Shown in pieces: positions 31,901-40,645 of a stretch of 64,000 bases of DNA. The position numbers were made by a program, and so were the translations under genes. A model generated the notes under the pieces. That model saw nothing but the letters and a program-made list of their open reading frames with translations, searched no databases and was not told the origin of the DNA. Numbering within the stretch: position 1 is the stretch's first letter; every line of letters begins with the position of its first letter. Origin of the DNA: a bacterium (GTDB taxonomy: Bacteria > Zhuqueibacterota > Zhuqueibacteria > Residuimicrobiales > Krinioviventaceae). The DNA is taken from the NCBI GenBank assembly GCA_963693055.1, contig OY843751.1, forward strand, positions 1,312,001 to 1,376,000. Direction: 5' to 3'.

Positions 31901-34333
31901 GATTTGGCCTGGATCAGTCTGTTCGCCAACAAATGGGGCCTGCACTTTATTCAAACCGCGAATATCGATGCGTCTACAACCGGCACCTGGTTTAACGGCT
32001 CCGGATTTTCACCCATCGGTAATAGTAGCACCGAATTTACCGGCTCTTATGACGGCCAGTTATATAGCATTTCCGGATTGACCATCAACCGGTCATCAAC
32101 CAGTGATGTCGGATTGTTTGGCCGTACCAGCGGCGCCATTCTGGAAAATATTGCAGTGATCAATGCGGATATTACCGGCAATGACGCTGTGGGTTGTCTG
32201 GTGGGTAACAATAGGGCCAGCTCCACAGTAAGCAAAAGTTATTCTACCGGTACTGTCAGCGGTAACATAAATGTTGGGGGTATTACGGGTTTGAACTATA
32301 ATGCCAGCCTGGCGCAGTGTTATGTTACGGCCGGTGTTAGCGGCGCCTCGGATGTGGGCGGACTGGTGGGCTCTAATTATATTTCCGCCACAACACAAAA
32401 ATGTTATGCCCGGGGTGACGTTACCGGCACATCCAACATTGGCGGACTTGCTGGCTCGAATGCAGGTGGAACGGTCAGCAGATGTTATGCAACCGGTGAG
32501 GTCTCGGGCTCATCCAATACCGGCGGACTGGTGGGTAATAACAATAATACAGTTACTGATAGCTTTTACGATGAATGGACCTCTGGGTGTAGCGATACCG
32601 GTAAGGGAGAACCTGTAAATACAGTATTTATGAAAATCCACTTGACGTTTACTGATGCCAATTGGGACTTTGCCACAGAGACCGCCAACGGCAGCAACGA
32701 TGTCTGGGACATGGATTACAACCAGGCAATAAACAGCGGTTACCCCTACCTGAGCTGGCAGGATGGCAGTAGTGTATCACTCAACTGGACAGCAGCAGCG
32801 CCTGCTGACGGTGAGGGCACCAGCGGCGATCCCTACCAGATTGCCAATCTGGAAAATCTTGCCTGGTTGTCACTGTATGCCAATCACTGGGACAAATATT
32901 ATATACAAACCGCAAACATTGATGCCTCGGCAACCAGTACCTGGAATGGAGGTGTAGGATTTTCACCCATCGGTAACAATTCTGTATGGTTTACCGGCAA
33001 TTACGACGGTCAATCTTACACTATCACCGGCCTGACCATCGATAGGTCAGGTACCAATAATATAGGTCTGTTTGGTTATACCAACGATGCCGTCATAAAA
33101 AATCTTGGGGTCTTGAGTGTTAATATTACCGGCAACAATAATGTGGGCAGTTTGATAGGCAATTTAAACGCCGGTACTGTAAAAAAGTGTTACTCTAACG
33201 GTAGTGTTTCCGGCAATGCCAAGGTTGGTGGTCTGGCAGGGTCCAACAACAGTGGGCTGCTTGGTCAGTGTTTTGCCAATACTGGTGTTTCGGGCGCTAC
33301 CGATATAGGTGGACTGGTGGGATACAACAACTATTCCTCTGATGTTAATAACTGTTATGCCAAAGGCAGTGTTTCCGGCACATCAAATGTGGGCGGTCTT
33401 GCCGGTTCAAATGTCTCATCAGCCATCCTGAATAAAAGTTATGCCAAAGGCAGTGTCTCCGGTTCTTCTGCCTCGGGTGGTCTGGTGGGTTTTAATGCTG
33501 GCGATGTGATTTTTTGCTTTTACGATTTAGAAACCACAGGGTGTAACGATACCGGCAAAGGCATACCCAAGTCTACAACAGATATGAAAATCCTGTCCAC
33601 ATTTACGGATGCGGACTGGGATTTTGAAGCAGAAACGGCTAACGGCAACAATGATTTTTGGGACCTGGATTGCAGTTGTTCCATAAACAATGGCTATCCC
33701 TTTCTCTCATGGTTAAATGGAGAAGATGTGGCCCTGCCCGTGGAATTGTACAGCTTTACAGCTGTTTGTGATAATGGCATAGTGATACTTGAATGGCAAA
33801 CCGCCAGTGAACGCGACAACCTGGGTTTTATACTTGAGCGACGAGATGAAAACAGCAACTGGCAGGAAATCAATTCTTACAAGATGTGTCAGACTCTGCA
33901 AGGGCAGGGAACAACTCCCTCGGAAACGGAATATTCCTACATTGATGATACGATTTCTCCCGGAAATACCTATACCTACCGTCTTTTGGATGTAAATACC
34001 AGTGGTGCGATAAATGTACTCGCATCTATATTGGTTAAAGTGGAATCTATTCCAACGACAACGCAATTATACCCTGCGTATCCGAATCCGTTCAATCCAT
34101 CTACAACCATCAGGTATGATCTGGCAAAAGACGGATATGTGAGTATTGCTGTATATGATGTGCTGGGCAGGCAGGTCAGGTCACTGTTTAACGGTGAGCA
34201 GGCTGCGGGGAGTTTTGATCTGCAATGGAACGGTCTCGATGATCTGGGTTGCCAGGTTTCGAGCGGTATTTATCTCGTTCGTTTTCAGACTGGTAATTTT
34301 ACCCGGACCCAAAAGGTTATGTTTGTAAAATAG
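28991..34333 (+). CDS. Large secreted GLUG-repeat protein with T9SS/FlgD-type C-terminal domain (paralog)
   Basis: Same architecture with five modules; LPVELYSF and YPNPFNP CTD. Confidence 0.88.
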   Translation: MKKIYSILLIVIFLTTGLYADGTQPPGSGTSDVPYEVSTLNHLLWISTNSGSWSACFEQTADINASATATWNSDGEGGYEGFSPIGKILDYFEGSYDGQGYAIEGLYINRTSDYVGLFGAIEGGSVENLILKNVNITAEAMVGGLAGYTVDAVFTNCSVSGSVSCINSYVGGLIGDITLSTQINECRSLCSVSGTFNVGGLVGCTYNSTVIKNSYARGSVDGTLSSVGGLLGYNSYGCQVNNCYATGSVSGDSQYGGLVGENNGTVSNSFYDQETTGQDDTGKGTPKTTEEMKTLYTFTNAGWDFDNETTNGTDDVWDIDYINSSNIGYPYLSWQDGATVAQPSGPDGSGTSNDPYQISNLTDLCWLSQNPSSWDKYFIQINDIDASSTSSWSGGFGFSPIGNNNDYFEGSYDGQGYAIEGLYINRSSSYVGLFGDMMGTGPVKNLIMRNVNITGDTFVGGLVGQQNYKVITNCSVTGSVSGAGYVGGVVGLEQYSAEVNECRSLCSVSGTFYVGSLVGGARFSAVINNSYARGSVDGTNSYIGGLLGGNADGCQVNNCYATGSVSGDSQVGGLVGENEGTVSNSFYDQITTGQDDTGKGSPKTTAEMKDYTTFINAGWDYVAETVNGSDDDWDQDCSESINNGYPYLSWQDGASVSLAVLSIVPSAGDGSSGDPYQIATINNLYWLSQNSDQWGQNYIQVANIDASVTGSLDSGSGFSSIGSDVINFSGTYDGQGYNIDNLYINRSASSFIGLFGYTNGAGISNIALTGANITGDQYVGGIAGVSSSGQIVQCYTKGSISGNYNVGGVSGCNNNTTIRNCYSTADISGTTNTGGLTGLNGVTSTIDKCYARGSVSGTTNTGGLVGANSATVSNSFFDSETTGQSDNSGKGVPKSTQAMQTFSTFFDAGWDLEVETGNGNNDIWDMDHTGSFGGCYPYLSWQDASDVSIPAKPADGDGSSGAPYQIATLSDLAWISLFANKWGLHFIQTANIDASTTGTWFNGSGFSPIGNSSTEFTGSYDGQLYSISGLTINRSSTSDVGLFGRTSGAILENIAVINADITGNDAVGCLVGNNRASSTVSKSYSTGTVSGNINVGGITGLNYNASLAQCYVTAGVSGASDVGGLVGSNYISATTQKCYARGDVTGTSNIGGLAGSNAGGTVSRCYATGEVSGSSNTGGLVGNNNNTVTDSFYDEWTSGCSDTGKGEPVNTVFMKIHLTFTDANWDFATETANGSNDVWDMDYNQAINSGYPYLSWQDGSSVSLNWTAAAPADGEGTSGDPYQIANLENLAWLSLYANHWDKYYIQTANIDASATSTWNGGVGFSPIGNNSVWFTGNYDGQSYTITGLTIDRSGTNNIGLFGYTNDAVIKNLGVLSVNITGNNNVGSLIGNLNAGTVKKCYSNGSVSGNAKVGGLAGSNNSGLLGQCFANTGVSGATDIGGLVGYNNYSSDVNNCYAKGSVSGTSNVGGLAGSNVSSAILNKSYAKGSVSGSSASGGLVGFNAGDVIFCFYDLETTGCNDTGKGIPKSTTDMKILSTFTDADWDFEAETANGNNDFWDLDCSCSINNGYPFLSWLNGEDVALPVELYSFTAVCDNGIVILEWQTASERDNLGFILERRDENSNWQEINSYKMCQTLQGQGTTPSETEYSYIDDTISPGNTYTYRLLDVNTSGAINVLASILVKVESIPTTTQLYPAYPNPFNPSTTIRYDLAKDGYVSIAVYDVLGRQVRSLFNGEQAAGSFDLQWNGLDDLGCQVSSGIYLVRFQTGNFTRTQKVMFVK

Positions 34334-34458
34334 TATCATATGACCAGAGGAGAAAAAGAAATTTATAAAACCCCCTAAAAATACAACGGAGCGTCAGATC
34401 ATTAATAAATTTGGTGATCTGTCATTCTGAAAGTAATAAAAGGGAAATATAAAAGCAA

Positions 34459-35283
34459 CTAATTGTTCTTTGAAAGATTCAACTGACTCCTTTGATTTTT
34501 AATTTTATCAGGCAAAAGATCAACATATTGTTGTATGACACGTTTGGAAAGTCTTGCCAGCTGGCTGATTTGATCAAGGTTTTTAATGTCATGCTTCCAA
34601 AGTAATTCAACACGATGGTAATCTTTGATATACCTGTCAACCGCTTCGTTGCTGTGTTTGGTTTTCAAAGCGATTTCGGGAGTGAGATATCCCTCAAGAT
34701 ACAGAGTGATAATTTCGCGTTTATGAGTAATAGCGCCGGAAAGATCATGGATGTTGCCACGCGTTGGTAAGAGATGCCCTTCTTTTTGGATTTCATTTAC
34801 ATATTTACTGACAACGGCATCACAGACACCGAGTAACATAGCCAGGTCAAGTTGAGTAAGCAGAGCACCTTGATCAAAAGCTTCATCAACCCAACGTTTG
34901 AGGCGTCTTTTCCTTAAAGTTTTGGAATCAAAACCATGCGCGATATGAGAAGTATCCTGATCAGTAATGAAAGAGAGGACAACGGGTTTCATTCGGGTAG
35001 CGGCAATACTTTTTCCGCGTTTGGGGTATTCATCGACAGGAACAGCCATCCAGACGAGTTGCCCATAGTGAATATGGTGCAAGTCATCATCAATAGAGGA
35101 GACAAGGAAATAGTCATCAATGATTTTAAGGATATCATCAATGATGGCATTGGCAGTGATGGCTCCTTTGTCATAGCCATAGCTATTCAAAAAGTTGTAC
35201 AGTAGTAACTGCTTGAGATCTTTATCTTTAAGTCGTCTCATTTTTTTGAGTTGAATTTGTTCTTTAGTCAAAGGTTTACTCAT
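34459..35283 (-). CDS. DUF1670-family protein, B type
   Basis: EAFDQGALLTQLDLAMLL, PTRGNIHDL...THK, HS...RY; ATG 35283 with GGAGG RBS; frame stays open upstream to 35337. Confidence 0.8.
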   Translation of the reverse strand: MSKPLTKEQIQLKKMRRLKDKDLKQLLLYNFLNSYGYDKGAITANAIIDDILKIIDDYFLVSSIDDDLHHIHYGQLVWMAVPVDEYPKRGKSIAATRMKPVVLSFITDQDTSHIAHGFDSKTLRKRRLKRWVDEAFDQGALLTQLDLAMLLGVCDAVVSKYVNEIQKEGHLLPTRGNIHDLSGAITHKREIITLYLEGYLTPEIALKTKHSNEAVDRYIKDYHRVELLWKHDIKNLDQISQLARLSKRVIQQYVDLLPDKIKNQRSQLNLSKNN

Positions 35284-36115
35284 TTTCTTTGCCTCCTGAT
35301 AGATGTTGAGGAATGGATTTTTTTTTCGCGTCGCCACCAGGTTCCGCAGGAGATAACAGATCGTTTAATCGCGTATTGTTTTGTTGAAGATAGGTTTGGT
35401 AGAGTTGGATATACTCGCGCACCAGGCGGTCGGATTTCTTTGCAATGAGTCGAATCTGGTTCGGAGAGAAATTTTCCTTGTATAAAAGGGCGATCTGCAT
35501 AAAGTCAGCGAGGTAACGTTTGATGCTGGTTTCAGAATGATTGGTTTTTTGTTCTATTTCTGAAAAGGTATAACCTTTAAGATACAGATCAATAATGATG
35601 GTTTTATGAGACAGTCCGGGACCCATGTCATGTTTCATACCTCGTGTCATGATAAACATACCGTGATGACGGAGATGATAAATGTCACGTTTAACAGTGG
35701 CCGGACTGGTGGTTAAAAGCATTGCCAGGTCTTCATAGCTGAGTAAAGCACCCTGATCATAGGCTTGTCGAGTCAGACGGGCGATCCGGTGTCGTCTAAG
35801 TCCGGCAAGGCCATAATTAGCCAGGGCTTGCAGATCTGTATTAAAGTCAATTAGTTTGAGACGGACCGTAAGCTTTCGGGTTAATCTGATATGTTTGCCG
35901 GCTGGTTCTTCAGCGGCAACAGCTTCATAAGCGACTTCACCTCCTGATAATGAAATGTTGGAATGTTCCTGAAAGTATTGGTCAAATTGTTGATAGTAAG
36001 CTTCGGCAATAATAGGAGTCAAATTGAAATCCTGAGACAGTTTTTGGACAATAGCGTTTTTAGCTGTCTTGGATTCGAGTCTTTTTAAACCATAATTATT
36101 TTTAACATCTGCCAT
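35276..36115 (-). CDS. DUF1670-family protein, A type
   Basis: QAYDQGALLSYEDLAMLL, TRGMKHDMGPGLSHK, HS...RY; AAGGAG RBS. Confidence 0.8.
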   Translation of the reverse strand: MADVKNNYGLKRLESKTAKNAIVQKLSQDFNLTPIIAEAYYQQFDQYFQEHSNISLSGGEVAYEAVAAEEPAGKHIRLTRKLTVRLKLIDFNTDLQALANYGLAGLRRHRIARLTRQAYDQGALLSYEDLAMLLTTSPATVKRDIYHLRHHGMFIMTRGMKHDMGPGLSHKTIIIDLYLKGYTFSEIEQKTNHSETSIKRYLADFMQIALLYKENFSPNQIRLIAKKSDRLVREYIQLYQTYLQQNNTRLNDLLSPAEPGGDAKKKSIPQHLSGGKENE

Positions 36116-36215
36116 AAGAATCTCCTTATTTCTGTTTTTATTAAAACAATGATTCCTATGGTCATATGCACTAAACTTTAAATAATTATATTTTGATAAA
36201 GGTAAGGGGCAAAGC

Positions 36216-36255
36216 GTGCCAGGGATACTTATTGCATCACTGGCACTTGTTTTAT
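36216..36255. terminator. Stem-loop, probable ancestral terminator between the convergent flanking genes
   Basis: GTGCCAG...CTGGCAC stem with T-rich tail, in the 95-bp spacer between the two DUF1670 units. Confidence 0.5.
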
Positions 36256-36399
36256 TTACGTTTAGGAAATATTTCCGGTAGGTTGTTTTTAAGATTAGAA
36301 CATTTATTCATTTTTTCAGCTAACGAAAGGAGCTCGTAGGGCGACTGGAGTTAGCTGAAAAACAATGACAACCTAACCTATTAATTCCTTTTCAAATTT

Positions 36400-37215
36400 T
36401 CAAGTTTTCTTTTGTATTAAATCTGAATGATAATGATAAACCAGATCACGATATTGTAATATTGTACTCCGTCCTAATCCGGTTATTCTTACCATTTCCA
36501 TTAAATTAAAACCTTTTTCCAATAATGATTTTACGTTCTTGTAACTCTTTAAATACCGACTCGTTGATTCAATTGTGTGATTTGTAATCCGGGCGATATC
36601 CGGTTCGGGATATCCCTGCTCGTACAAATCTATAATTGCGGCTTTATGCGTCGGCTTACTGCCCTGATCCAGCATCATTCCTTTAGTCGGCAATATATCA
36701 TCATGCGTTTCATGATAAATTGTCATATACCGACCAATAGTGTTTAATGAGCGATTCAACAATACACTGAGTTCTGCACCTGTCAACCAGCCGCCCTGTT
36801 CTGCCGCACTCTTGCATAACCGCGCCATTACTTTAATATCCCGTTCTGTTTGTTTTTCATAATTAGCACTGCCATCTTTTGGGGGATAAGAATAATGGCT
36901 TTTGATACGATTGTCAATATCCGCATCTGTTACCAACGGTAGCACAACTGTCTGAACCTCATAATCTTCCGCTTTTGTGCCATAACTTGGCTTTCGGTTT
37001 GTCGCTTTGGTTGTCCGCCAGATAATCTGACCAAAACTTTTCTTTTCCAGCTCTGGATAAAATTCATTTTGCAATGCGACAATATCTTCTGCAATCATCC
37101 GGATGACTTTGTGGCTTCCCAGCATTTTATAATTTTCTTCCAGTAATCGAATAATCGCATTTTGAAAGCTACGCTTAGCTATTGATTCATAACGATTTAA
37201 AGGCTTAGTCTTCAT
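36400..37215 (-). CDS. DUF1670-family protein, B type
   Basis: GQIIW, SAAEQGGWLTGAELSVLL, PTKGMMLDQG...THK, HT...RY. Confidence 0.78.
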   Translation of the reverse strand: MKTKPLNRYESIAKRSFQNAIIRLLEENYKMLGSHKVIRMIAEDIVALQNEFYPELEKKSFGQIIWRTTKATNRKPSYGTKAEDYEVQTVVLPLVTDADIDNRIKSHYSYPPKDGSANYEKQTERDIKVMARLCKSAAEQGGWLTGAELSVLLNRSLNTIGRYMTIYHETHDDILPTKGMMLDQGSKPTHKAAIIDLYEQGYPEPDIARITNHTIESTSRYLKSYKNVKSLLEKGFNLMEMVRITGLGRSTILQYRDLVYHYHSDLIQKKT

Positions 37216-38032
37216 CGATCCCCTCCTTGGTTTGTTTTTTTTTCGAGGGGTATAACACCTTTAATTGCTCCAATAACTCTACATAGATCGGCGGCCATTT
37301 GTCACCCTGTTTATGATGCTCAAAAATATCCAGGTACTCACGGGTCAAACGCTCACTTTGGCCTAATAACCGACTGATCTCTTTGATATCCTGCATACCA
37401 TGATTCAGTAATAACAACAGCCTGCCAAAGCTGCACACATATCGTTTTATTGAAAACGCGCTATGACGACTTTTACGAATAATTGCATCGTATGTGTCTC
37501 CCTGCAAATACAGTTCAATAATGTGGCTTTTGTGTGACAAGCTCCGACCGATGTCATGGTCTGTTCCGCGCGTGTGAATAAAGTTGCCATCAGTCTGCAA
37601 AGACTTTATATCCTGGCGTACAGTGCGGCTCGTAACCTGGAGGATCCGGGCCAAATCCTCTTGTGTCAAAGAACCTTCCTGATCCCAGGCTTCTTCGGTC
37701 AATCGTAAGACCTTTAACTGGCGCAGTGCCTTGGGACCGCTTTCTTTTAATACATTTAAATCTTCTACACCGGCATCCAGTGTTAACTCTACTTCTTTCA
37801 ATTCCTGCTCACCCAGGGGCTTGCCATGTTTTGCCTTGGTGGATGCGCAGATATATTTTATTTTACCAACTGTCTGGGGAACCTCGCCAAATAAACACTG
37901 CTTGGCTAAATCCAATATCCCTTTACTTTCTGCCGGTGATAATTCAAATTCTTTTCGTAAAGAATTGATGAATACTTGCTCGGGTGTTTTTTCTAATATC
38001 CTGTCATACAAACTACTACGAGTATTGTACAT
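37205..38032 (-). CDS. DUF1670-family protein, A type
   Basis: EEAWDQEGSLTQEDLARIL, TRGTDHDIGRSLSHK, HS...RY; GGAGG RBS. Confidence 0.8.
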   Translation of the reverse strand: MYNTRSSLYDRILEKTPEQVFINSLRKEFELSPAESKGILDLAKQCLFGEVPQTVGKIKYICASTKAKHGKPLGEQELKEVELTLDAGVEDLNVLKESGPKALRQLKVLRLTEEAWDQEGSLTQEDLARILQVTSRTVRQDIKSLQTDGNFIHTRGTDHDIGRSLSHKSHIIELYLQGDTYDAIIRKSRHSAFSIKRYVCSFGRLLLLLNHGMQDIKEISRLLGQSERLTREYLDIFEHHKQGDKWPPIYVELLEQLKVLYPSKKKQTKEGIDED

Positions 38033-38088
38033 TTGTCCTCCGGTAAGTTTTGAAATCTTTGTTTGACTTCCGGTTACTTCTAGTAAAT

Positions 38089-38117
38089 ACTATATGAAAT
38101 AACCGCCTTTTTTCCAA
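38089..38117 (-). promoter_or_regulatory. Candidate sigma70 promoter inside the right end of element 2
   Basis: Minus strand TTGGAA-N17-TATAGT upstream of the 38032 start. Confidence 0.35.
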
Positions 38118-38137
38118 AACCTACCGGAAAATTTTCC

Positions 38138-40645
38138 TTATTTCACAAACAAAGCTTTTCTGATTTTAATACAATTTCCTGTTTCCAGTTTGTAAAAATA
38201 TATGCCGCTTGAAAGATCCTCCGCATTCATCATGTAGGTGTATACTCCCGCTCCTTTTTGTTCGTTCACAAGTTCACGAACTTTTTCCCCCAATACATTA
38301 TACAGGGTCAGTTTTACATTTGATTTGTAGGGTACAGCATAGTTGATTGTTGTTGTCGGGTTAAAGGGATTGGGATAGTTTTGCTCTAATCTAAACCGAG
38401 TGGGGATTGCCGTATCCTTCTCTCTGGAATCGATGCGAGTATAAACAGGAGGCTCTTCCGGTACCCAGTCATAGCTGAAACGAGGATTAGATGTTTTTGC
38501 AAAAATGTTTTCAAGGGTATATTCGGCAGCTTCTTCATCGGATAGTTGTCTGGATATAGGAGTTCTATATGTTGTATCCGCACCTTCACCGTAACAGTTG
38601 TATTCTGCGTATAATGCCGGTGGCACATTCCAGGCCGACCATCCCACTAGTGAAAGAGCTGCAGGCTCTTGCGTATTGATGAATACCGTGCGTGGCGCTC
38701 CCTGCCAGGGGCGACCCAGCACAAAAGTATAAATCTCTTTGCCATCAAACCCAATATTATCATTACTAATGATACAATCTTTGAATACATAACCGAATTT
38801 GGAATCTGCTTCTGTGGCTGCTGCTGTCAGGGCTCCACCGTTTCGGTTGATGTGAATTTCGCAGCTATCAAACAGCACAATATTACGTCCGAAAATAAAA
38901 TCAACCGATCCTTCAATGTAGCAGTTTTTCATATAGGTCCTGCCTGTACCCCGGCCACCCCAGGTATAGTAAGTGTCCTGATATCCGAGCAGTCTGCAGT
39001 TATAATAGCTTTGCCGGTCTCCGTTTACACGTAGAGCAACCGCCTGTTGGTCTTCAAAACTACCGTCATTCATTACAGTGTTCTGAAAAGTAATATTAAC
39101 TGCTGTAAAGTCATCCGCATCAATTGCTGTGCTGTACGAATTGGAGGTGCCGCCTGCTTTGCCAGCATAATCATCAAATGTGAGTATGGTACTGTCCGCA
39201 TTTTCACCCCGAAGCGTTACATTGAGCTTTTCTCTGTCAAGTAGCAGCTTTTCGTAATATACTCCATTTTTGATATAAATATAATAATTACCGGTATATT
39301 TGTCCGGAATGTTATCAAACGCTTGCTGAACAGTAGTATAATCTCCATTGCCCGAATGGTCAACCACTTTATAGACATCCGGTTGGGGAGCCAGAGTAGT
39401 GAATTCGCGGACCGATCCATAACCGGTCCCGGCGCTATTGGTAGCATACGCACAGACGTAATAGGTTGTGGTTTCCTGCAAGGGGTAGATCAAGCTGTTA
39501 AAGGCTGACATGCCGTCACCTTCTATGTTATAACTGTCATCCAGAGTAGGGGAGCCGGTAGTATTCCACACCAGACCTTTCGCGGTAATTTCGGCGCCGC
39601 CCCAGTCAATAACACTGCCGCCGCATTCAGCGGTTTCTACACGTACATTAGAAACACCGGCAGTAAATACCCAGGGAACATCTAATGAATCAAGGGTTTT
39701 GAATGTAATTTCTTCTCCATAAGCAGTACCTGCGGCATTTATAGCATATGCTTTGGCAAAATATTCTGTACCGGGAGTTAGGCCCGTCAAATGACTTGTA
39801 AAGGCACCAGAGCCGGTTCCATCTGATGTGTGATTGTTTTCGATAGTGGGGGAACCTGTGGTATTCCAAACAACACCACGTTGAGTAATTTGTGCGCCAC
39901 CATCAGATTCAATATCACCTCCGCAGGTGCAATAAGTGGTGGAAACAAATGTAGCATCTTCCGTAGAGAGACTGGCTAAATCGTATTCAATTTCACCTTC
40001 CACAGTGCCACTAATTTTGACATCTTTTAATAAAAGATATTTACCGGTAAGGCCGCTGGTTTGATTGTGGACCCAGGGATAGACTCGCAGGTAAAAAGTT
40101 CTATCGCCAGGGATCTGTACATTTAAATTCAAGGATACTGTATGCAACGAGTCGGCACGTAATATATATCCGTTGCTTTCAAGCACAAGAGAAGCAGGGA
40201 TTTCTTCAAATGTATTGAAATCAGGATCCTGTGAGTAAAGAATACGGGCTTTAAGATAGTTGGTATAGTCCGCTCCAATTTTTAAAGAAGTGTTTTTGAT
40301 TGTGAGATCTGTGCCGCTCATTGCGGATACGGCAAACTGTGTATAAACCGATTCAATGATGTCGGTTTGATTCTCCGGCCATTGTGTGGCTCCACCCGGG
40401 GGACGGTTGTCGCTGCGTTGGCTGTTTTTGGCACCGGTGTAACTATTTACGCGCATACCAACGAATTGCTGATCCACTGCATCTATAGGGCCGGAGGTCA
40501 AAACGGTTAGTCCGCTACCTTCTGTCGCTGGATCACTCAACTCCCACAATGCATATGCAGAGGTGGTTTCATTTACCTCTTGTCCAAAACTATTACCGGT
40601 AATGAAAAGAGTACAAAATAACAAAAGAAATGTTTGTCGATTCAT
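38138..40645 (-). CDS. Secreted pectinesterase (CE8) with FN3-like domains and T9SS-type CTD
   Basis: GDYTTVQQA, QAVAL, GYQDT, GSVDFIFG, LGRPW motifs; two CGG...RGVVW repeats; NYPNPFNP. Confidence 0.92.
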   Translation of the reverse strand: MNRQTFLLLFCTLFITGNSFGQEVNETTSAYALWELSDPATEGSGLTVLTSGPIDAVDQQFVGMRVNSYTGAKNSQRSDNRPPGGATQWPENQTDIIESVYTQFAVSAMSGTDLTIKNTSLKIGADYTNYLKARILYSQDPDFNTFEEIPASLVLESNGYILRADSLHTVSLNLNVQIPGDRTFYLRVYPWVHNQTSGLTGKYLLLKDVKISGTVEGEIEYDLASLSTEDATFVSTTYCTCGGDIESDGGAQITQRGVVWNTTGSPTIENNHTSDGTGSGAFTSHLTGLTPGTEYFAKAYAINAAGTAYGEEITFKTLDSLDVPWVFTAGVSNVRVETAECGGSVIDWGGAEITAKGLVWNTTGSPTLDDSYNIEGDGMSAFNSLIYPLQETTTYYVCAYATNSAGTGYGSVREFTTLAPQPDVYKVVDHSGNGDYTTVQQAFDNIPDKYTGNYYIYIKNGVYYEKLLLDREKLNVTLRGENADSTILTFDDYAGKAGGTSNSYSTAIDADDFTAVNITFQNTVMNDGSFEDQQAVALRVNGDRQSYYNCRLLGYQDTYYTWGGRGTGRTYMKNCYIEGSVDFIFGRNIVLFDSCEIHINRNGGALTAAATEADSKFGYVFKDCIISNDNIGFDGKEIYTFVLGRPWQGAPRTVFINTQEPAALSLVGWSAWNVPPALYAEYNCYGEGADTTYRTPISRQLSDEEAAEYTLENIFAKTSNPRFSYDWVPEEPPVYTRIDSREKDTAIPTRFRLEQNYPNPFNPTTTINYAVPYKSNVKLTLYNVLGEKVRELVNEQKGAGVYTYMMNAEDLSSGIYFYKLETGNCIKIRKALFVK

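Follow-up and report, generated by a model that had tools for sequence, protein, structure and literature searches.

This analysis concerns a predicted recoding site shared by two pairs of DUF1670 genes, which lie in a window of 64,000 nucleotides (nt), i.e. the whole stretch of DNA analysed here, from contig OY843751.1 of assembly GCA_963693055.1. The genome is represented by one 6.5-Mb contig with a G+C content of 39%. On its minus strand, the window harbors two gene pairs in tandem, A2/B2 and A1/B1, which we refer to as unit 2 and unit 1, respectively. The four gene products are members of the Pfam family DUF1670 (PF07900), which they match at 160-211 bits with a gathering threshold of 25 bits, and the only other models matching them are helix-turn-helix (HTH) models. 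Genome-wide, we identified 26 DUF1670 matches, which correspond to 13 A-B pairs. Based on the protein identities between A1 and A2 (34%), B1 and B2 (29%) and A1 and B1 (34%), we conclude that units 1 and 2 are old paralogues, each of which contains an old A/B duplication. The coordinates of the genes, of the predicted slip sites and of the elements that carry them are compiled in Table 1.

Table 1 Features of the two DUF1670 units. Positions refer to the window; all features lie on the minus strand.
Feature	Position	Strand	Description
A1	35276..36115	-	279 amino acids (aa); DUF1670, E 9.8e-59
B1	34459..35283	-	274 aa from its own ATG (35283-35281); DUF1670, E 2.1e-62; +1 frame relative to A1
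A2	37205..38032	-	275 aa; DUF1670, E 6.6e-47
B2	36400..37215	-	271 aa; DUF1670, E 4.9e-48; +1 frame relative to A2
Unit 1, predicted slip site	35318..35326	-	A9 in frame (AAA AAA AAA), followed by T (A9T); 39 nt before the A1 stop; identical in 6/6 copies
Unit 2, predicted slip site	37235..37243	-	A9 in frame (AAA AAA AAA); 27 nt before the A2 stop; 7/7 copies
Unit 1, predicted trans-frame linker	35284..35317	-	34 nt, no stop in the B frame; length constant in 19 distinct relatives
Unit 2, predicted trans-frame linker	37216..37234	-	19 nt, no stop in the B frame
Unit 1 element	34333..36179	-	~1847 bp; imperfect terminal inverted repeats, core CATATGACCA; AAATA flanks at 34328-34332 and 36180-36184
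Unit 2 element	36258..38138	-	~1881 bp; 20-bp inverted repeats, 18/20 matched, core TTTCCGGTAGGTT; AAATA flanks at 38143-38139 and 36257-36253

Close to its 3′ end, each A gene contains the sequence NCG AAA AAA AAA, which on the coding strand is embedded in GAC GCG AAA AAA AAA TCC ... AAT GAG TAA in A1 and in CCC TCG AAA AAA AAA CAA ... GAC TAA in A2. An earlier note on this DNA had described these sites as T9 runs of the plus strand, and indeed both are present where it had placed them, at genome positions 1347318 and 1349235 (offset 1312000). Its statement that the +1 frame holds gene B and is free of stop codons from the run to the B start codon agrees with our translations, which read V-A-T-R-K-K-N-P-F-L-N-I-Y-Q-E-A-K-K-M-S in unit 1 and P-R-K-K-N-K-P-R-R-G-S-M-K-T in unit 2. 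The start signals that it had assigned to the B genes were likewise recovered: both B genes overlap the A stop codon, and a ribosome-binding site (RBS) is located inside each linker, AGGAGG at 35297-35292, 8 nt before the ATG of B1, and GGAGG at 37226-37222, 6 nt before the ATG of B2. All 13 genomic copies of the two units carry A9, including the most divergent unit 2 copy (92.7% identity), in which TAA follows the run immediately in frame 0, owing to a C-to-T change, and the +1 frame is still open. The arrangement by which slippage sites of the type described for IS1447 and by Baranov et al. 2005 are recognized, i.e. a run at the overlap with a shifted, open downstream open reading frame (ORF), is thus found in both units. 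The layout of a −1 frameshift site (heptamer X_XXY_YYZ in phase, downstream ORF in −1) is not that of the window, where B is in the +1 frame, and is found in relatives. From the gene and linker lengths, an A-B fusion of ~552 aa is predicted for unit 1 and of ~543 aa for unit 2, close to the ~550 aa expected in the earlier note.

Next, we considered whether the runs are real and whether they could be due to chance. In Logan contigs of three sequencing runs (X1-X3, one sample, which is probably the source sample) both A9 runs are covered with 0 gaps, and a relative with 96% identity from a second sample (X4) also aligns without a gap (44 substitutions over 1119 bases), with the qualification that contigs drop rare run-length variants. 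The contigs show A9 and not the A8 that the earlier note had raised as a possible artefact, and it can be ruled out that the assembly systematically turned A8 into A9. In total, 260 A9/T9 runs occur in the genome, about one per 25 kb, and two coding-strand A9 runs less than 40 nt upstream of two B starts are not expected by chance. Using a crude ORF map of the genome (87.7% coding), we found that the coding share of A/T runs (Pc/Pg) amounts to 0.83, 0.79, 0.70, 0.56, 0.30 and 0.10 for lengths of 5, 6, 7, 8, 9 and at least 10, respectively. Long A/T runs are therefore progressively avoided in the coding DNA of this genome, a signature which Baranov et al. 2005 link to slippage and read as selection against slippage-prone runs in genes (PMC1088944). 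Inside ORFs, the genome contains 63 sense-strand A runs of at least 9, and 13 of these 63 are the A/B junctions described here.

To place the junctions in a wider context, we collected DUF1670 loci from public genomes, using one genome per species. This yielded 75 loci (designated by L numbers), from Ignavibacteria, KSB1, Cloacimonadota, Fidelibacterota, Poribacteria, Halanaerobiales, Symbiobacteriaceae and others, with 64 resolved A-B junctions. An A run of at least A6 is present at the homologous place in 61 of these 64 junctions, and the junction tract is kept across relatives down to ~30% protein identity; the junctions lacking a homologous run are a decayed copy (L033, +1 frame, with an A6 elsewhere) and two run-less fusions (L029 and L060). 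When B is in the +1 frame, the tract is A9 in 24 junctions, A8 in nine, A7 in four, and A10 and A6 in one each, and when B is in the −1 frame, it is A7 in 13 junctions, A8 in five, and A9, A10 and A6 in one each. The remaining four junctions lie within a single ORF, two with A8 (L041, L070) and two without a run (L029, L060). The −1 junctions include a group with A7 from Poribacteria, which reads GAA AAA AAG GGG and thereby contains the classical heptamer A_AAA_AAG in phase, and those with A8 contain A_AAA_AAG or A_AAA_AAA in phase. Thus, the same ORF layout together with a run is found in non-identical homologues, as described for slippage sites by Baranov et al.

For a test of the reading frames, we added the two pairs of the window and left out L033 and the four single-ORF junctions, which resulted in 61 pairs. 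In 60 of them, no stop codon interrupts the B frame between the end of the run and the B domain, the exception being a decayed copy (L065); the third frame, which served as control, is open in 36 of 61. After clustering at 80% identity the corresponding numbers are 14/15 and 6/15. Other A runs of at least 7 are rare across the A and B coding spans (only 13 in 101,920 nt). Within one of the 80% clusters (L027, L028, L032, L041, L080), both the run length and the direction of the B frame vary, and B is always one single-base slip away. The 19 distinct unit 1 relatives with A9T, which were picked by a pattern requiring A9, vary freely in the 30 nt before the run and in most of the 34 nt after it, whereas the A9 and the 34-nt spacing are constant. 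The earlier note had proposed CG-A9 as the conserved site, and only the run itself proved to be conserved: the two bases preceding it in 26 A9/+1 junctions are CT in 15, CG in eight, AT in two and AC in one, so that CG does not belong to the signal. Similarly, its expectation that homologous junctions keep both run and frame applies to the slippery run and to the open, shifted B frame, but not to the implied constancy of the +1 frame, since +1 and −1 layouts both occur in the family, as would fit slippage.

A second set, consisting of the best 80 of 291 metagenome loci, provided 69 resolved junctions, while 11 could not be resolved. All 69 contain an A run or an A/G tract, which is a run of at least A5 in 64 cases and A4G7 in five. 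Here, B is predominantly in the −1 frame (62/69), with the tracts CG AAA AAA GGGGG (A6G5, G_AAA_AAA in phase; 32 junctions), A7 (15), A6 in other phases (3), A5 (4), A8 (3) and A4G7 (G_GGG_GGA in phase; 5). In the seven junctions with B in the +1 frame, the tract is A9 (2), A8 (3) or A6 (2). The B frame is open in all 64 metagenome junctions with a run of at least A5.

The earlier note had suggested looking for naturally fused proteins. An exhaustive HMMER search with A1 revealed 1230 relatives at E ≤ 1e-3, and among the best 150 of these are 20 two-module proteins (502-660 aa) and four three-module proteins (930-952 aa); 11 of the multi-module proteins were actually read. Homologues encoded as a single ORF hence exist. 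The A-like module comes first in three of the two-module proteins (P0025, P0028, P0038) and second in the other 17. The first half of P0025 matches A1 best (136 vs 80 bits) and its second half matches B1 best (76 vs 49 bits), so that P0025 represents a colinear A-B fusion without an A run. The deep conservation of the putative slip site between two paralogous DNA-binding genes, in combination with these natural fusions, suggests that the two modules act as one unit. As an observation in its own right, the three-module architectures carry an extra N-terminal module, which starts with MGR(K/E)(K/R)xYRQ, and occur either as single chains of 930-952 aa (P0004, P0011, P0014, P0019) or as a two-module ORF followed by a third ORF (L029, L060, L061). 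In the latter, the ORF junction contains A9 (L029 in the +1 frame, L061 in the −1 frame) or, in the G+C-rich L060, A6G.

From these comparisons we propose, with a probability of roughly 75%, that the A9 at the end of gene A is a programmed slip site, most likely of RNA polymerase (A9 to A8), which would lead to the production of A, B and an A-B fusion of ~550 aa. According to this model, RNA polymerase would occasionally make an A8 transcript from the A9 template, which brings gene B in frame, and translation of such transcripts would yield the fusion, whereas A and B would also be made alone and A10 transcripts would change only the last residues of A. The fusion would be the selected, active product. 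The weakest step, which relies on the analogy with IS1, IS3 and IS1447, is that the fusion would be the transposition-active form and that the slip frequency would set its dose; the earlier suggestion that the fusion possibly limits mobility is speculation. Every comparative test that we ran supports the predicted recoding, and by analogy the slip in this organism would probably occur at transcription rather than on the ribosome.

Several points weigh against this model, and some of them lend weight to other explanations. Many relatives have only A5-A6 runs, which are short for polymerase slippage, and the slip mechanism may therefore differ between subfamilies. The fusion could instead be made on the ribosome, by +1 frameshifting or by sliding on poly(A) in the units of the window and by classical −1 frameshifting in the relatives. 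Ribosome sliding on poly(A) is known. Apart from the short tracts, this explanation is favored by the in-phase heptamers of all relatives with B in the −1 frame, namely A_AAA_AAG, A_AAA_AAA, G_AAA_AAA and G_GGG_GGA, which are among the frameshift heptamers of Antonov et al. 2013 (PMC3711429). Yet, the sole tested precedent for A9 with a +1 target ORF in the literature covered, IS1447, is transcriptional, no +1 frameshift signal in the form of a rare or stop codon follows the run, and close relatives (the L027/L028/L080 cluster) swap +1 and −1 layouts via their run length, which is easier with polymerase slippage because it yields both slip directions. We thus regard a ribosomal origin as unlikely. 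No significant stimulatory RNA structure was found beside either run (z −0.56 and +1.67 upstream, +1.80 and −1.88 across the junction). Furthermore, Pfam, NCBIfam, PHROGs and PDB fold and profile searches recognized no transposase or recombinase domain in A or B, so that the logic of the IS3 family, in which a DNA binder is fused to a catalytic domain, is not directly transferable to two proteins without a recognizable catalytic domain.

A further point is that the codon-position variability of the 34-nt linker fits neither frame cleanly. B, moreover, has its own strong RBS and ATG in essentially all relatives, from which it follows that the fusion is not required for B expression. These start signals of B could indicate that there is no recoding at all and that the run merely represents a lysine-rich A tail and/or an unstructured A-rich leader, located 10-34 nt upstream of the ATG, which aids B translation, with the A/B overlap reflecting ordinary translational coupling. 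In line with this, the A and B genes of the window favor AAA over AAG (66/91 outside the runs), and it is nothing unusual for a frame to stay open over 5-14 codons, as indicated by the control frame. It is less readily reconciled with the homopolymer being uninterrupted in the A9T relatives, even though AAA makes up only 187/330 (57%) of their lysine codons outside the run, with the near-complete openness of the B frame in both junction sets, with the agreement between heptamer phase and direction of the B frame, and with the A4G7 variants, which retain the tract but lose the lysines. In addition, the natural single-ORF fusions show the two modules working as one chain, and the three-module relatives repeat the device at another junction. 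We therefore consider the absence of recoding improbable. The slip could also take place at the DNA level, with replication slippage heritably toggling copies between a split (A9) and a fused (A8) state, and variants among related copies elsewhere might be interpreted this way (L041 with A8 and a single ORF vs L028 with A9; L070 with A8; L058 with A10 vs L057 and L059 with A9 in one genome). However, the assemblies containing L041 and L070 (single ORF) and L058 (shifted layout) are, as we assume from their naming, long-read metagenome-assembled genomes, and these run-length variants may be homopolymer errors, which also counts against the use of such loci in support of slippage. As all 13 copies in the present genome are A9, no phase-variable polymorphism was observed here, nor did the contigs of the three runs show an indel, bearing in mind the loss of rare variants in contigs. 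A DNA-level switch, which would be compatible with slippage at the RNA level, therefore appears very improbable. Finally, given that homopolymers are prone to errors and that one contig of 6.5 Mb makes up the genome, one might suspect a true run of A8 and a single A-B gene, but in view of the A9 found at both sites in the contigs of all three runs, the gapless 96%-identical relative and the 24 junctions from public genome assemblies with A9 and the same layout, this is hardly credible.

With respect to the RNA surrounding the run in unit 2 (37221-37250, minus strand), we observed that CCCCUC, which immediately precedes the A9, is complementary to GAGGGG of the B2 RBS. Pairing of the two (−10.7 kcal/mol, z = −1.88) would leave the run in a loop. 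L027 seems to keep a similar pairing with other letters (CCCATC / GATGGG). As judged from the sequence, such a pairing would mask the B2 RBS and could couple the translation of B to that of A.

The units carrying the predicted slip sites are mobile in nature. BLAST of the region against the genome revealed six copies of unit 1 (99.7-100% identity) and, in addition to the 92.7% copy mentioned above, six copies of unit 2 (98.7-100%). The inverted-repeat cores of both units are confined to these copies and occur nowhere else in the genome; a larger master element with the same inverted repeats, which we had considered as a candidate, is thereby ruled out. A and B are the sole genes of each element (~1.85 and ~1.88 kb). 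Since the units are multicopy and end in inverted repeats whose cores are found nowhere else in the genome, we conclude that they are small insertion-sequence-like elements, and with a short flanking direct repeat they also display the third of the generic features of insertion sequences. This 5-bp repeat, AAATA, flanks both elements and is perfect on both sides in 10 of the 13 copies, whereas in the other three the far-side repeat is off by one base (AAGTA twice, AAAAA once), with the elements themselves being almost identical. A shared recombination core fits the AAATA flanks at least as well as a target-site duplication, and the pattern might point to site-specific recombination instead of transposition of the DDE type. 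Units 1 and 2 are neighbours twice in the genome, at C1:507.8-511.6 kb and in the window at 34.3-38.1 kb, with differing relative orientations, and this adjacency can be attributed to the use of AAATA-type targets by both.

We also noticed that the insertion site of each element coincides precisely with the stop codon of a gene ending in a type IX secretion sorting domain (window 34328-34333 and 38138-38143). The flanking genes match TIGR04183 at 44.7 and 50.1 bits (cut-off 23). Unit 2 follows the C-terminal end LFVK* of a gene in the same orientation, and a sorting-domain tail is found at all seven of its copies. Unit 1 abuts the end MFVK* of a convergent gene, and among its six copies a sorting-domain tail was read next to four; the fifth (C1:509.7 kb) has integrated into the AAATA end of a copy of unit 2, and the flank of the sixth (C1:6088 kb) has no clear sorting-domain tail. 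The insertion point is located after AAA TA of the lysine and stop codons, with the last base of the stop codon being provided by the element. About 23 homologous elements in other genomes share the sorting-gene neighbourhood (123 pairs examined; L031, L039, L049, L051, L057-L059, L063, L088, L090-L096, L102, L105, L122, L125, L135), and three more pattern matches look spurious.

The AlphaFold model of A1 (mean predicted local distance difference test score 88.3, 82 sequences) shows an all-alpha fold that comprises several helix-turn-helix units plus a single beta hairpin. Foldseek did not retrieve any match to this model in the PDB at E ≤ 1e-3, the top rows being winged-helix regulators, and a PDB profile search returned HTH fragments only. 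PHROGs gave only weak regulator matches, none of them above the threshold, NCBIfam gave none above its cut-offs, a tblastn search of plasmids gave no match, and the ESM Atlas scores, at 0.81 or less, provided nothing useful for naming. A literature search for 'DUF1670' or 'PF07900' returned no paper, most subscription-journal papers being outside its scope. In 80 A-type, B-type and fused sequences, the residues R107, R113, Q121, L125, T157, G159, D163, H170, K171, I187, H193, R200 and Y201 are invariant (A1 numbering, carried over from that of P0025); that they may be catalytic or contact DNA is speculation. An alignment made to fold the natural fusion was not used for modelling, as the B-type sequences fell on its first half. 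It is possible, and we put this forward only tentatively, that the A-B fusion produced by slippage represents the active form of a DNA-moving enzyme of a new kind, composed of two DUF1670 multi-HTH modules, each with an invariant R...R...TxG...D...HK...H...RY, and without known transposase or recombinase folds, and that the frequency of slipping would govern how often the elements jump, in a family homing to the final codon of cargo genes for type IX secretion.

Recoding at A runs is a known means for insertion sequences to dose their transposase, and the finding gives a handle on an uncharacterised mobile-element family. It also leads to the prediction that the pre-fused form is the construct to express when studying the movement of the element. 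Moreover, the family represents a natural experiment, in which +1 and −1 layouts as well as A-only and A-G tracts interchange.

The closest parallel is IS1447, an IS3-family element of Clostridium thermocellum, which has A9T at the 3′ end of OrfA, OrfB in the +1 frame and a fusion made from A8 transcripts (PMC6211511). In the same study, 9/52 cDNA clones were A8 and 8/52 were A10, with A9 in 30/30 DNA clones, and seven A's were sufficient for slippage. The DUF1670 units thus resemble IS1447 in the A9T that ends the upstream ORF in unit 1 and in the +1 position of the downstream ORF, and a run, of 7-9 A's, is likewise kept in IS1447 relatives. They differ in that IS1447 consists of a DNA-binding OrfA and a DDE catalytic OrfB, whereas the DUF1670 units consist of two paralogous multi-HTH modules without a known catalytic domain, have a strong RBS of their own on B, and show no adjacent stem-loop in our searches. 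For the IS1, IS3, IS5 and IS630 families, the use of frameshifting is established, and DUF1670 elements are not among the families named in the available parts of the corresponding review (PMC5009743). With the −1 frameshifting of IS1 and IS3 (A6C, A_AAA_AAG), which produces OrfA, OrfB and OrfAB from a slippery A-tract at the overlap (PMC5009743), the DUF1670 units share the A-tract at the overlap and the predicted set of products, and among their relatives, those from Poribacteria and others even have the heptamer A_AAA_AAG in phase and B in −1. In contrast to IS1 and IS3, the units of the window need a +1 and not a −1 shift, and have neither an rve/DDE domain nor a downstream pseudoknot or stem. 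As only DUF1670 and HTH models match, and the DDE (rve) domain characteristic of an IS3-family OrfB was not found, the DUF1670 elements do not belong to the families of IS1447, IS1 or IS3. An IS630 element of Roseiflexus uses polymerase slippage on the heteropolymeric tract T5C5 to produce its transposase, which shows that tracts made of two different bases can also function as polymerase slip sites (PMC5009743). In this respect it resembles the metagenome relatives with their A6G5, A7G4 and A4G7 tracts. The T5C5 site depends, however, on an upstream nascent-RNA hairpin (PMC5009743), which we did not see here, and the sites in the window are plain A9. The mobile-element family carrying the predicted slip sites is undescribed, whereas the recoding device itself is already known from insertion sequences.

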